From the NCBI GenBank assembly GCA_964547525.1, contig CAZJOD010000002.1:2404-66403 (forward strand): DNA of 64,000 nt, read 5' to 3'. Below the pieces are notes generated by a model. The model was given only the letters and a program-made list of their open reading frames with translations, did not search any database and was not told the origin of the DNA. The DNA is from an uncultured Clostridiaceae bacterium (GTDB lineage Bacteria > Bacillota > Clostridia > JAAYHZ01). Below are positions 11,136 through 16,495 of the stretch, piece after piece (the stretch's first letter is position 1; every line of letters starts with the position of its first letter). The position numbers were made by a program, and so were the translations under genes.

Positions 11136-11190
11136 CATTTTTAAAACTAATTTTAAAAATGTATACCGGCCCGAACACGCTACATGCGGA
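11136..11190. repeat. intergenic repeat element, copy 1 (AT-rich 11-bp-arm palindrome plus GC-rich tail)
   Basis: CATTTTTAAAActaaTTTTAAAAATGTAtaCCGGCCCG..ACGCTaCATGCGG. The same element recurs twice in tandem at 16316-16495. Confidence 0.7.
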
Positions 11191-11294
11191 TGCAGATCAT
11201 AGCCGTTCGTCTTTATATTTTTACAAAAAAATATAAACTGAGATGTGAATAATTTAGTAACAATCCGACTTTTATAAATATGAGAATTGATATT

Positions 11295-11325
11295 TTGACG
11301 TCTCTTTTTACATAAGATAATATTT
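11295..11325 (+). promoter_or_regulatory. sigma-A type promoter upstream of the 11338 ORF
   Basis: TTGACG, 17-bp spacer, then TAATAT. This leaves almost no leader before the 11338 ATG. Confidence 0.45.
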
Positions 11326-11337
11326 TCGTATAGTTTT

Positions 11338-11841
11338 ATGGTTTCTACAAACAATATGAATGAGAAAATATCTTTTGGAGATGATGGTATGAATTTTTAT
11401 TTACCTGCTACTAGTATAAGAGTATGGCTTCACACTAACGCTCAAATAAATGATTTGATATTCGAATCGATAATATCAAACATTAAATATTATATTGATA
11501 AAAGTGGAGATGAGATAACACAAAGGTTATTAGAATTGGATGAAGAATGGGATACAGAACGTGTGCTTGAGACAAGTGCTTCAGGACTTGTTATAACGGG
11601 AGCAATACTGGCGTTAACTTCTAAAAACAAATTATGGGCTCTATTATCTGCCGTTACAGGCGGGTTTTTACTACAGCACGCATTACAGGGGTGGTGTCCT
11701 CCGCTACCGTTTATAAGAAGATTAGGTGTACGTACTCAAACCGAAATAATGGCGGAAAAAACTTTACTGGAAGTATTAAAGGAAGATCCGCAAAAACTGG
11801 ATGAAGAGAGAATAAGAGAAATTGTAAGGAACATAATTTAA
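11338..11841 (+). CDS. DUF2892/YgaP-like membrane protein (start uncertain; the alternative ATG at 11389 has a GGAGA Shine-Dalgarno)
   Basis: C-terminal half has a hydrophobic helix followed by a GWCPPLPFIRRLG motif (GwCP signature of DUF2892). 167 aa. Confidence 0.5.
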   Translation: MVSTNNMNEKISFGDDGMNFYLPATSIRVWLHTNAQINDLIFESIISNIKYYIDKSGDEITQRLLELDEEWDTERVLETSASGLVITGAILALTSKNKLWALLSAVTGGFLLQHALQGWCPPLPFIRRLGVRTQTEIMAEKTLLEVLKEDPQKLDEERIREIVRNII

Positions 11842-11870
11842 ATATCAGGTATATTAATAAAATAAAACAA

Positions 11871-11916
11871 GGCTGTTTACGAGATTTATACCGTATAAAA
11901 CAGCCGTTTTTTTTTT
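11871..11916 (+). terminator. rho-independent terminator
   Basis: GGCTGTTT...AAACAGCC stem followed by an 11-nt T-run. Confidence 0.8.
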
Positions 11917-12073
11917 GAATATTTAAATTGTGCTTATTTTAATACAATTGTAAAAAAACACATCTTGTCCATATTAGACTTGTATTGTATAATAAGTCTA
12001 TTGCGAGTCGTTTTCATATAAAAAGGCGTAGATAACTATCTTATATTACATTATTTATTATGGAGGGTGGATT

Positions 12074-13699: not shown

Positions 13700-13711
13700 A
13701 AAAGGATTTTA

Positions 13712-14737
13712 ATGAAAAAAAGTGACTTTTATTATGAGTTACCTGATGGTTATGTAGCTCAAAAACCTGTAACACCCCGGGATCATTCAAAGCTAATGGT
13801 TCTGGACAGGGAAAAACAAACAATAGAACACAAAAAGTTTTTTGAGATAATTGAATATTTGCATAAGGGAGATTGTTTGGTTCTAAATGATACCAAGGTT
13901 ATTCCTGCAAGGTTATACGGACAAAGAGAGGATACCGGCGGCAAGATCGAATTTGTGCTTCTCAAAGAAATAGAAAAAAATAAATGGGAAGTATTATTAA
14001 AGCCTGGAAAAAGGGCTAAAATCGGGAGTAGATTCATATTTGGTGATGGAATGCTGATAGCCACCGTATTGGATATTGTGCAGGGTGGTAATCGTATTGT
14101 ATCTTTCGAATGCCAAGGGCTTTTAGAGAATGTTTTAGATAAGATAGGAAAACTTCCGTTACCACCTTATATTACATGCGAACCTGAAGATCAAAACCGG
14201 TATCAAACCGTTTATGCTGCTAACAGAGGCTCGGCCGCGGCACCTACCGCAGGGTTACATTTTACTCCGGAACTACTAGATAAAATAAGCAAAAATGGTA
14301 TAAACATAGTATATATTACATTGCATGTAGGGCTTGGTACATTTAGACCGGTTAAGACTGATAATATTGAAGAACATAAAATGCATTCTGAAACATTTAC
14401 AATTGATCAAAAGGCATGTGATATAATAAATAAAGCTAAAGCCGACGGTAGTAATATTATATGTGTAGGCACAACGAGCTGTAGAGTTTTGGAGTCATCT
14501 ACAGACCAAGAAGGAGTTATTCATGCATATTCGGGTAGTACCGACATTTTTATATATCCAGGATACAAATTTAAAATGGTGGATCGATTAATAACCAATT
14601 TTCATTTACCTGAATCAACCTTGTTAATGCTTGTTAGCGCTTTAGCGGGGAGAGATAAAATAATGTCCGCATATCAATCGGCAATAGACAATAATTATCG
14701 TTTTTTTAGCTTTGGAGATGCAATGTTTATATTATGA
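13712..14737 (+). CDS. queA: S-adenosylmethionine:tRNA ribosyltransferase-isomerase
   Basis: [34 protein letters not shown] is the QueA N-terminus. 341 aa. Confidence 0.92.
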
Positions 14738-14807
14738 TTCTACTGCACAAACTTTATTTTTGTGAAATCAAATATAGTAAAGGACATAGAATAAAAGGAT
14801 TTTTAAT

Positions 14808-15923
14808 ATGACTAATATAAAATACGAATTGATAAAAATTTGTAAACAAACCGGTGCCAGATTAGGTAAAGTCCACACACCACATGGCAGTTTTGATACA
14901 CCGGCTTTTATGCCGGTAGGCACACAAGGAACGGTAAAGGGAATGTCTCCTGCAGAGCTAAGGGAAGTGGGAGCGGGTATAATACTTAGCAATACTTACC
15001 ATTTATATATGCGCCCCGGACACAATACGGTAAAAGCCGCCGGAGGACTCCATAATTTTATGTCATGGGACAGACCTATATTGACAGATAGCGGAGGTTT
15101 TCAAGTATTTAGTTTAGCGGATAAAAAAGATATATCGGACGAAGGAGTTATGTTTAAATCTCATATAGACGGATCAAAACATTTTATATCTCCGGAGTTA
15201 TCTATGGAAATCCAAAATGCATTAGGATCGGATATTATTATGGCATTTGATCAGTGTACCGAATATCCCGTTGATTACGATTATGCAAAGATTGCAACCG
15301 AGAGAACGACACAATGGGCAAAAAGGTGTTTAGCTGTCCATAATAATGATAAACAGGCGCTTTTTGGGATAATTCAAGGGGGTATGTTCGAGGATCTCAG
15401 AAAACAAAGTGCCAAGGATTTAATTGATATGGATTTTCCGGGATACGGAATCGGAGGACTAAGTGTAGGTGAACCTAAGGTAGAAATGTATCGTGTTCTA
15501 GACTTTCTAACACCTGTGATGCCGTATGACAAGCCCAGGTATCTTATGGGTGTAGGAAGCCCTGATTGTCTTATAGAAGGTGCGATAAGAGGAGTGGATA
15601 TGTTTGATTGCGTTTTACCTACAAGAATTGGCAGGAACGGTACAATGATGACATCAAAAGGCAGAATGATAATTCGTGACGCCAAATATGCCGAAGACTT
15701 TACAAAACCTGATCCGAATTGCGAATGTATGGTCTGTAACACTTTCTCCAGAGCGTATATTAGACACCTTATAAAGGCTAAAGAGTTACTAGGTTTACGA
15801 CTTACGACCTATCATAACATATTTTTTCTTTTAGACTTGATGAAATCTGTAAGACAAGCTATAATAGATGACAGACTGGGTGATTTTAGAAATGAATTTT
15901 TTAAAATGTACGGCTATGAATAA
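14808..15923 (+). CDS. tgt: queuine tRNA-ribosyltransferase
   Basis: [20 protein letters not shown]...[12 protein letters not shown]...zinc motif CxC..C...H near the C-terminus. 371 aa. Confidence 0.93.
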
Positions 15924-15960
15924 AAGCTGATTGAGTATTATATGAACGGAGGATATTAGA

Positions 15961-16308
15961 ATGAATCTTTTATTATTAAATAAGGTGTTGGCTGAAACAG
16001 CCGGTCAGCCGGCGGTAGAGGATGTCGGTATGGGAAGCTTATTGGCTACGTCCCTACTGCCATTTGCGTTAATTATAGGTATCATGTATTTGATGCTGAT
16101 CAGACCTCAGAAAAAGAAGGAAAAGGCGCTTAAAGAGTTGATAAGTAATATAAAGGTTGGAGACGAGATTACAACCATCGGTGGAATCATCGGTAAAGTA
16201 ATTAACGTAAGAGAAGATGAAGTCACGATAGAATCATCTATCGATAAAACAAAATTACAGATGAATAAATATGCTATTAAAGATGTAAAGCAGTATGAAA
16301 AAGCTTAA
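15961..16308 (+). CDS. yajC: preprotein translocase subunit YajC
   Basis: Single TM, then LIRPQKKKEKALKELISNIKVGDEITTIGGIIGKVINVREDEVTIE. GGAGG Shine-Dalgarno. Confidence 0.85.
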   Translation: MNLLLLNKVLAETAGQPAVEDVGMGSLLATSLLPFALIIGIMYLMLIRPQKKKEKALKELISNIKVGDEITTIGGIIGKVINVREDEVTIESSIDKTKLQMNKYAIKDVKQYEKA

Positions 16309-16315
16309 TAAATAA

Positions 16316-16495
16316 CTAAACAGGATACATTTTTAAAACTTGATTTTAAAAATGTACGCCGGCCCGGGGACGCTCAATGCGGCCACCGGGTCTAACTAAA
16401 TAGGATACATTTTTAAAACTTGATTTTAAAAATGTACGCCGACCCGGGGACGCTCAATGCGGCCGCCGGGTCTAACTAAACAGGATACATTTTTC
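16316..16495. repeat. tandem array (2.2 x 80 bp) of the same palindromic repeat element as at 11136
   Basis: Unit AGGATACATTTTTAAAACTTGATTTTAAAAATGTACGCCGGCCCGGGGACGCTCAATGCGGCCACCGGGTCTAACTAAA(T/C). The two full units differ at 3 positions. A third copy is truncated after ...CATTTTT. Confidence 0.8.

Follow-up and report, generated by a model that had tools for sequence, protein, structure and literature searches.

A lineage-specific family of intergenic two-hairpin repeats in an uncultured Bacillota of deep-sea hydrothermal mats

The stretch of DNA analysed here (the window; 64,000 nucleotides from an uncultured Clostridiaceae bacterium, numbered from its first letter) is a core-genome segment with ribosomal protein genes, rpoA, spoIID, queA, tgt, glpK, the gene for an H+-PPase, clpPX, tig, uvrC, and others. 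It has a GC content of 37% and a strongly positive GC skew, and nearly all of its genes lie on the + strand. Two of its intergenic regions carry the repeat element that is the subject of this report, one as a single copy (copy A, 11121-11209) and one as a tandem array (array B, 16313-16494); all copies at both loci are on the + strand. A preliminary description, made from the letters alone, had reported one single and one tandem locus, and the motifs were indeed found on reading the sequence at 11121-11210 and 16313-16494. Copy A is preceded by a tRNA-Leu(GAG) gene (10994-11076, +; ARAGORN, and Rfam tRNA with 48 bits) and by the intrinsic terminator of this gene (11086-11117, +; terminator scan), the stem of which ends 11 nt ahead of the leader anchor of the element according to the spacing analysis. 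It is followed after about 130 nt by an open reading frame (ORF) of 167 amino acids (11338-11841, +). This ORF matched PF11127 (YgaP-like transmembrane) with E = 1e-4 and 22.7 bits, below the curated cut-off of 25.3 bits, and its earlier label of DUF2892 is weakly backed by this match. Array B begins 4 nt after the end of the stop codon of yajC (15961-16308, +; ORF list and Pfam YajC) and is separated by 48 nt from a convergent DUF3792 gene (16543-16989, - strand; ORF list and Pfam DUF3792).

Each unit of the element combines a short leader (AAATAGGATA) with an AT-rich hairpin, the stem of which has 13 bp, and a GC-rich hairpin of 31 nt. Array B contains two full 80-bp units (16313-16392 and 16393-16472) in head-to-tail arrangement, followed by 22 nt of a third unit (16473-16494). 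It was detected with Tandem Repeats Finder (TRF) as the single strong array of the window (period 80, 2.3 copies, 96% matches, score 343), and the family model described below matched it at 16310-16389 (76.3 bits) and 16390-16483 (103 bits). The AT hairpin of unit 1 (16326-16356, +) reads TACATTTTTAAAA-CTTGA-TTTTAAAAATGTA and was identified from the sequence, a pattern search, and folds; that of unit 2 (16406-16436, +) was identified from the sequence and the pattern. The GC hairpin of unit 1 (16361-16392, +) reads GGCCCGGGGACGC-TCAAT-GCGGCCACCGGGTC and is backed by folds and by compensatory pair changes over 26 family copies, and that of unit 2 (16441-16472, +; GACCCGG...CCGGGTC) by the sequence, the GC-tail pattern, and the family pair counts. 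The two units differ at three positions, as had been noted before, and an A-T pair stands in the GC hairpin of unit 2 at the position of a G-T pair in unit 1.

Copy A is a divergent member in which the leader and the AT hairpin are followed by a longer GC-rich hairpin. It was matched by the model at 11118-11209 (59.6 bits, E ~5e-11, compared with 76-103 bits for the units of array B) and could be aligned with the array units. The element had been placed at 11136-11190, which is correct as to its location but too short at both ends: similarity begins about 15 nt further left, at 11121 (leader TTATTTAATAAGATG vs TAACTAAACAGGATA), and the second hairpin extends to 11209. The AT hairpin (11133-11164, +; ATGCATTTTTAAAA-CTAA-TTTTAAAAATGTAT; sequence, RNA and DNA folds) has the perfect 11-bp arms that had been described (11136-11146 and 11151-11161); the paired stem is longer, amounting to 14 bp including one G-U pair in copy A and to 13 bp in the array units (TACATTTTTAAAA / TTTTAAAAATGTA). 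The second hairpin of copy A (11172-11209, +; folds, GC-tail match at 11166-11189) has an outer stem CGAAC/GTTCG around ACGCT-ACAT-GCGG, which replaces the CCCGG/CCGGG stem of the array units.

Within the window, the AT palindrome pattern matched only at 16328-16354 and 16408-16434, its fixed gap causing copy A, with a loop of 4 nt, to be skipped, and the GC-tail pattern matched at 11166-11189, 16359-16382, and 16439-16462. The expectation was 0.00 for both patterns in 100 dinucleotide-preserving shuffles. The statement that nothing else in the window resembles the element was confirmed by a covariance-model search of all 64 kb with filters switched off, in which no other copy was recovered and the next matches (16.5 bits or less) were ordinary terminators. 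Two AT-rich stretches around strong GC hairpins (28307-28390 and 38965-39049; e.g., AAACCCGCCGGAAAATCCAGACGGGTTT) are among these weak matches. They were considered as extra copies and rejected as ordinary, probably bidirectional, terminators.

Further members were sought in a scan of public metagenomes (241 million records) for the exact palindrome CATTTTTAAAA-N3-6-TTTTAAAAATG, which returned at least 100 loci. About 65 of the loci listed were unrelated AT-rich chance matches from many environments. Every listed locus with the leader ..AAATAGGATA and the GC tail (about 35 contigs) came from four JGI (Joint Genome Institute) metagenomes, Ga0334883-86, which were obtained from deep-sea hydrothermal mats (PMC10159854). 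The same samples hold exact copies of the YajC and L17 (rplQ) proteins of the window, and array B itself is also present in contigs from other samples. After removal of contigs that duplicated the window loci or one another, at least 24 distinct arrays with about 45 units remained (further arrays are designated below by locus number, L). This count is a lower bound, as a perfect palindrome was demanded and all five of the adjacency-found neighbour units that were inspected (5/5) deviate from it. The flanking genes differ from array to array and include rplA/rplJ, metG, lon, recO, thiT, a cyclophilin (peptidyl-prolyl isomerase) gene, ybaB, a prismane gene, tRNA-Arg, and others. For at least 10 arrays a contig end is reached directly or within about 150 nt, and several contigs, four of them carrying yajC, end inside the repeat, a pattern that is expected of multicopy sequences. 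All copies are intergenic or at ORF ends. The opposite reading, in which there is no family and the two nearby intergenic regions share a local duplication, draws on the presence of only two loci in the 64-kb window; it was rejected and retains practically no probability since contigs from the same samples carry 22 or more additional arrays whose flanks are unrelated.

Outside these samples the family was not encountered. The junction pattern TTTAAAAATGTANNCCGNCCCG gave no match in 185,579 GTDB species genomes and none in viral contigs, two further element patterns gave none in viral contigs, and a blastn comparison of the array with plasmids and phages gave no match. The family model was also run on 1.43 Mb of tgt-syntenic DNA from 80 other genomes (80 loci), again with no match. 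A search of 10900-16600 against Rfam (E <= 5) returned only the tRNA, and thus no known RNA family or ribozyme. The Rfam run at gathering thresholds gave no match in the whole window, and overlooked even the tRNA-Leu at 10994-11076, which scores 48 bits in the E-value run against a gathering score of 29; negatives obtained in gathering mode are therefore weak evidence. The best identity of the Tgt protein among GTDB representatives is only 69% (a Fusibacter metagenome-assembled genome, a Clostridium metagenome-assembled genome, and Paenibacillus), and the host is therefore a poorly represented Bacillota lineage. The window loci thus belong to a previously undescribed, lineage-specific family of non-coding two-hairpin repeats of about 80-95 nt, and the host is an uncultured low-GC Bacillota of deep-sea hydrothermal mats.

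The consensus of the unit consists of the leader (T)AAATAGGATA, the AT hairpin CATTTTTAAAA-CTTGA-TTTTAAAAATG, the linker TA(C/T/A)(G/A)CC, and the GC hairpin G(G/A)CCCGGGGACGC-TCGAT-GCGGCCACGGG(T/C)C, often followed by TTATT. Single-strand folds of the unit gave two hairpins (z = -5.3 to -6.3). A covariance model built from 25 copies recovers the members with scores of 79-111 bits, and copy A with 59.6 bits. Over 26 model-aligned copies, 96.7% of the cells are paired, compared with 25-52% when the 3' partners are slid; the alignment was fitted to the model, and its pair counts accordingly lean towards the structure. Four pairs of the GC hairpin vary on both sides in these copies, pair 55-85 being AU in 10, GU in 9, and GC in 7 of them, and compensatory variants are also visible in the raw sequences (GACCTGTGG...CCTCAGGTC in L041 and GACTCGAAGCCGC...GCGGCTTTGAGTC in L053). 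In the GC hairpin, which had been predicted to fold from the window copies, pairing is conserved rather than sequence. A three-way junction with a closing stem between leader and trailer, predicted for the consensus, was rejected on the alignment, in which it is 48.8% paired.

These data also bear on the improbable reading of the repeats as arrays of double-stranded DNA binding sites, in which the AT palindrome (arms of 11-13 bp, centre of 4-5 bp) would be the site of a dimeric nucleoid-associated protein, regulator, or site-specific recombinase, giving the repeats a part in chromosome organisation or regulation. As duplex DNA the palindrome has no mismatch, and it is identical in copy A and array B, which are otherwise divergent, and the REP (repetitive extragenic palindromic) and BIME (bacterial interspersed mosaic element) repeats of Escherichia coli bind gyrase and IHF (integration host factor). 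Most copies, however, stand downstream of genes or between convergent ones, positions that lack a promoter on which a regulator could act; the centre varies in length and sequence (CTTGA, CTAA, CCGGA, CTAGC); units that were found by adjacency alone, without selection by the scan, have mismatches or indels in the palindrome and yet still fold (L054:2868, L050, L065, L033, L053); and the compensatory evolution of the GC hairpin points to a single-stranded structure. Tyrosine recombinases use a central region of 6-8 bp, longer than the 4-5 bp present here, and dif/Xer or attC sites were rejected on the length of the central region and on context.

Most loci are multi-unit and invariably head-to-tail, with one to three units per array and periods of 79, 80, 89, 95, and 101 nt. 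Outside the palindrome, units are 93% identical within arrays and 77% between arrays, and those of one array share private variants and a locus-specific flank (L068, L077, L053, L041). Array growth in place, by tandem duplication that includes the adjacent flank and proceeds by slippage or unequal recombination, would account for this pattern. The same organisation is known from ordered clusters of REPINs (REP doublets forming hairpins), which are tandem repeats of near-identical units including flanking DNA (PMC3116915), and from clustered REPs (PMC3733652). The 3' end of an array is often a partial unit. In L050, L065, L053, L068, and L042 this terminal partial unit is a "solo" long palindrome without the GC hairpin, so that the AT hairpin occurs as a module with or without it; array B, by contrast, ends with the first 22 nt of its third unit. 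In the solo units the leader pairs with its own inverted copy (ATAGGATACA...TGTATCCTAT) and the arms reach 16-22 bp, with variants mirrored in both arms (GGCTA/TAGCC in L068, GACAT/ATGTC in L053). When full units are compared with solos, the right arm looks as if the 31-nt GC hairpin had been inserted into it, with ...TGTA(n)CC on one side and TATTTA on the other, and the ancestral form may have been a long AT palindrome that acquired this hairpin in its right arm as a separate insertion. Inverted orientation occurs only between two whole arrays about 1 kb apart in L077 (467-648, - strand, and 1588-1751, + strand), which flank thiT, a gene for a thiamine transporter (Thia_YuaJ). The two arrays are mutual closest relatives (93-95% identity) with common private variants, which suggests from their sequences a local inverted duplication or the movement of a whole array.

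Several readings of such tandem repeats were considered on the same data. That the units are small-RNA genes, or tandem RNA repeats like those of type III antitoxins, each being or being processed into a discrete RNA, is very improbable. The stable two-hairpin fold agrees with the small-RNA candidate of the preliminary description, and the tandem copies resemble multicopy small-RNA loci and ToxI-type repeat arrays (cf. PMC3401426). Against it, there is no promoter-like site within 11121-11209 or 16313-16494 and no canonical terminator in the unit, there is no Rfam match, and the partial units in which arrays end are cut off at differing points. The arrays have housekeeping genes as neighbours, and type III antitoxin repeats were rejected because no toxin-like gene follows any array. 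A CRISPR-like reading was rejected because the "spacers" are identical. Mycobacterial interspersed repetitive units (MIRU) and other dispersed minisatellites resemble the present family in having units of 46-101 bp that occur in tandem at many intergenic loci of one genome. MIRUs differ in that they hold small ORFs in frame with their neighbours and lack the hairpin pair; a coding, MIRU-like reading was rejected here, as the units contain stop codons throughout and none of the five periods is divisible by three.

The arrays are biased in position and orientation with respect to genes. Where it is visible, the nearest upstream gene or tRNA is co-oriented with the array in 18 of 21 cases, a count corrected at L108 (tRNA-Arg), L107 (open-ended ORF), and L065 (321-amino-acid ORF); a check for such an orientation bias had been proposed. 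The three exceptions (L012:6458, L077:1588, and L035) lie in divergent or 5' regions. Between co-directional genes with both neighbours known, six arrays are in sense and none is in antisense orientation. A GC-skew test of replication-strand bias gave 12 G-rich, 4 C-rich, and 8 undecided cases, counts that are confounded with gene orientation. In 10 of the 21 arrays, copy A included, the leader anchor is preceded at a distance of 8-16 nt by the end of a terminator-like stem, and in about seven others, among them array B, the element starts 0-13 nt after a stop codon. The upstream ORF of L065 has its last residues (..NRIHF) and its stop codon encoded by the leader.

Individual loci illustrate the range of settings. 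In L065, the copy at 43-135 (- strand) overlaps an amidohydrolase-like ORF (109-1074, - strand), whose C-terminal end is encoded by the leader and the first arm of the AT hairpin. A paralogue directly upstream of this ORF ends differently, and the insertion has therefore replaced the native C-terminus. In L108 the copy (2363-2571, +) stands after tRNA-Arg CCG and its terminator, as copy A does after tRNA-Leu; tRNA-linked arrays number 2 of 24. In L054 the lon protease gene is bracketed by two co-oriented copies (2-89 and 2868-2960, +), both at contig ends, and in L022 a copy (618-710, - strand) lies between rplA and rplJ, the usual place of the L10 leader.

One explanation of this placement, possible but rather doubtful, is that the repeat is a functional RNA module of the host, in which the GC hairpin and a U-rich tail (consensus GGGUC-UUAUU) would terminate transcription or shield mRNAs from 3' exonucleases, with two-way action in convergent gene pairs; such a role would be compatible with a selfish origin. 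It accords with the sense orientation behind genes in 18 of 21 arrays, with the frequent location right after a stop codon where no other terminator is present (array B, L068, L100, L063, L038, L042, L050), and with the maintenance of the GC hairpin by compensatory changes in which G-U pairs are tolerated. T-rich sequence (TCTTATT, TCTTTTT, TCTTTTG) follows the GC hairpin at many array ends and single copies, and a small alternative hairpin on the antisense strand, with ACATTTTTAA after it, was flagged as terminator-like (a weak candidate). The sense-strand GC hairpins of the window, with their tails UCUAACUAAA / TCTAACTAAA, were nevertheless not called by the terminator scan: an intrinsic terminator has a U run within 0-2 nt of its GC stem-loop, and the consensus tail TCTTATT is only partly U-rich. 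The earlier judgement that the element is not simply a terminator thus stands. Furthermore, 10 of the 21 arrays lie just past a canonical terminator, where little transcription is expected, three lie in divergent or 5' regions, and a needed module would not be limited to one lineage and missing from its relatives.

The best explanation, to which a probability of roughly 60% is given, is that the family is a selfish, lineage-specific, non-autonomous structured repeat of a REPIN/BOX-like kind, which expands in place through tandem duplication and probably forms part of mRNA 3' ends by co-transcription. Such an element would have spread in the lineage as a hairpin-forming strand with the aid of an enzyme encoded elsewhere in the genome. 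It would land, or survive, only at the 3' edge of transcription units and in sense orientation, either a few bases past the T-tract of a terminator or at a stop codon, and in at least one case it supplies the last codons and the stop codon itself. Subsequent tandem duplication of the unit with its adjacent flank would give rise to arrays such as that at 16313-16494. Transcription onto mRNA 3' ends is considered probable because of position and orientation, and the two hairpins may then cause weak termination or impede 3' exonucleases. Spread as a non-autonomous mobile element is inferred from dispersal together with restricted distribution, an argument that has also been used for pneumococcal repeats (PMC3049150).

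A number of observations weigh against this explanation. No transposase or recombinase domain was found with Pfam in 50 window ORFs (11-64 kb, the first 11 kb, mostly ribosomal-protein genes, having been left out of the scan) or in 28 ORFs flanking other arrays. The association with a RAYT (REP-associated tyrosine transposase) or an IS200-like tnpA, for which a check had been proposed, was seen in neither set. L077 and L012 were considered as repeat-flanked transposase carriers and rejected, the enclosed genes being thiT and cyclophilin. Neither empty sites nor polymorphism for presence or absence were seen, spacing at the yajC and rplQ loci being the same in all samples (no record was found for the exact DUF3792 protein), and mobility is consequently argued from dispersal only. 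There is no clear target-site duplication: TTATT(A)(A)(A) stands on both sides of several single copies (L078, L012, L107, L054), is absent in L077, L100, L041, and L038, and is also part of the consensus ends of the element itself. Full units have no terminal inverted repeats (ends AAATAGGATA... vs ...GGGTCTTATT). The family contigs are linked to the window genome only by their origin in the same samples and by similar GC content (32-39% vs 37%). Because the copies were gathered by exact palindrome match, the AT hairpin is invariant by ascertainment, which says nothing on constraint. The position bias could stem from purifying selection and not from target choice. Finally, head-to-tail arrays are rare in REP families (PMC3733652), yet they are the rule in this family.

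Comparison with known systems defines the class to which the family belongs. In common with the REPs and REPINs of Pseudomonas fluorescens SBW25, which are associated with RAYTs of the Y1 HUH type (PMC3116915, PMC3733652), it consists of short, extragenic, lineage-restricted hairpin repeats in tens of copies or more (here at least 24 arrays with about 45 units), the stems evolve by compensatory change with G-T pairs tolerated, and higher-order clusters are formed by tandem near-identical units including flanking DNA (93% vs 77%; L068, L077, L053, L041). REPs are defined by a stem-loop that carries, at one end, a tetranucleotide tag of unpaired bases, GTAG or CGTC (PMC3733652), and no such tag is present beside either hairpin on either strand of the consensus ...AAATAGGATA-(AT hairpin)-TACGCC-(GC hairpin)-TCTTATT.... 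The unit joins an AT hairpin to an unlike GC hairpin, in place of a single REP or an inverted pair of REPs; head-head or tail-tail dimers do not predominate, as all multi-unit arrays are exclusively head-to-tail; and no RAYT was found among the window ORFs scanned (11-64 kb) or in the array flanks. The host, moreover, is a Bacillota, and in a survey of REPs the phylum lists contain no Firmicutes, the word not occurring once (PMC3733652). Strict REP membership fails. Among the three candidates put forward in the preliminary description, a REP/BIME-like element is the best as a working analogy, with regard to extragenic location, hairpins, orientation bias, and tandem clusters.

The pneumococcal elements BOX, RUP, and SPRITE are intergenic, co-transcribed with their neighbours, and confined to one species group, are regarded as parasitic, and can alter the 3' ends of genes (PMC3049150). 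The present family shares with them a low-GC Gram-positive host, modularity, tandem repetition, extensive secondary structure, intergenic location, confinement to one lineage, and the ability to alter gene 3' ends. It differs in its layout of leader, AT hairpin, and GC hairpin, which is not boxA-boxB(n)-boxC (the comparison is one of layout), and in that the whole unit is repeated, whereas an internal module is repeated in BOX. Miniature inverted-repeat transposable elements (MITEs) and palindromic miniatures (Correia/NEMIS, RUP, ERIC, RPE) are likewise small, non-coding, and AT-rich; the solo units are long perfect palindromes with 16-22-bp arms that resemble terminal inverted repeats, and, as with MITEs, the element can supply stop codons to truncated ORFs. 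The family differs from MITEs in that full units end in non-complementary sequence (AAATAGGATA... vs ...GGGTCTTATT), and in its tandem head-to-tail arrays, which are unusual for MITEs. No clear target-site duplication was seen, and neither a transposase nor a parent insertion sequence with matching ends was found on the retrieved contigs. Constant spacing from terminators is, to our knowledge, not a feature of BOX. Class C group II introns insert just after intrinsic terminators, at a fixed short distance and in the sense direction; the likeness is one of target choice only, and the present units, of 80 nt, lack intron domains and a reverse transcriptase and match no intron family of Rfam.

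A more specific proposal, which we regard as speculative and unlikely as it stands, is that the family is a new Bacillota miniature mobile element that recognises the 3' boundaries of transcription units (a terminator hairpin with its T-tract, or the stop-codon region). It would insert in sense at a fixed offset of 8-16 nt, be moved by a non-RAYT enzyme, and bring its own stop codon and a transferable GC hairpin.

Some features of the window lie apart from the repeat. A GFO/IDH/MocA oxidoreductase is encoded by two ORFs about 110 nt apart, for the N-terminal Rossmann part (59334-59576, +) and the C-terminal part (59687-60193, +), and is probably a frameshifted or interrupted gene (59334-60193). 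A type II toxin-antitoxin pair (ribbon-helix-helix antitoxin and PemK/MazF toxin; 45969-46596, +) is located amid housekeeping genes. A 12/24-nt tandem repeat (ACAACAAAACAA, about six copies; 50515-50590, +) encodes a low-complexity stretch within a 133-amino-acid ORF (50366-50767) that has no Pfam match. ORFs without a Pfam match at E <= 1e-5 are located at 23391-24782 (+), 42445-44088 (- strand), 46769-47401, 48193-48648 (- strand), 48722-49345, 62241-62879, and 63129-63998 (- strand); the largest of these has 547 amino acids and is one of the few minus-strand genes.

The repeats are a new family of a class already known, that of small interspersed structured repeats, and not a new principle; the family by itself opens none in biology. 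Few small interspersed repeats have been described in uncultured Bacillota or Clostridia-like lineages, in contrast to their good documentation in Proteobacteria and streptococci. For the host organism, the family explains the assembly breaks behind its genes, and the sequence and structure model is usable to bin, finish, and strain-type its genome. With its terminator offset, its donation of stop codons, and its head-to-tail arrays, frequently closed by a solo unit, the family provides a test case for target choice and amplification of hairpin repeats.

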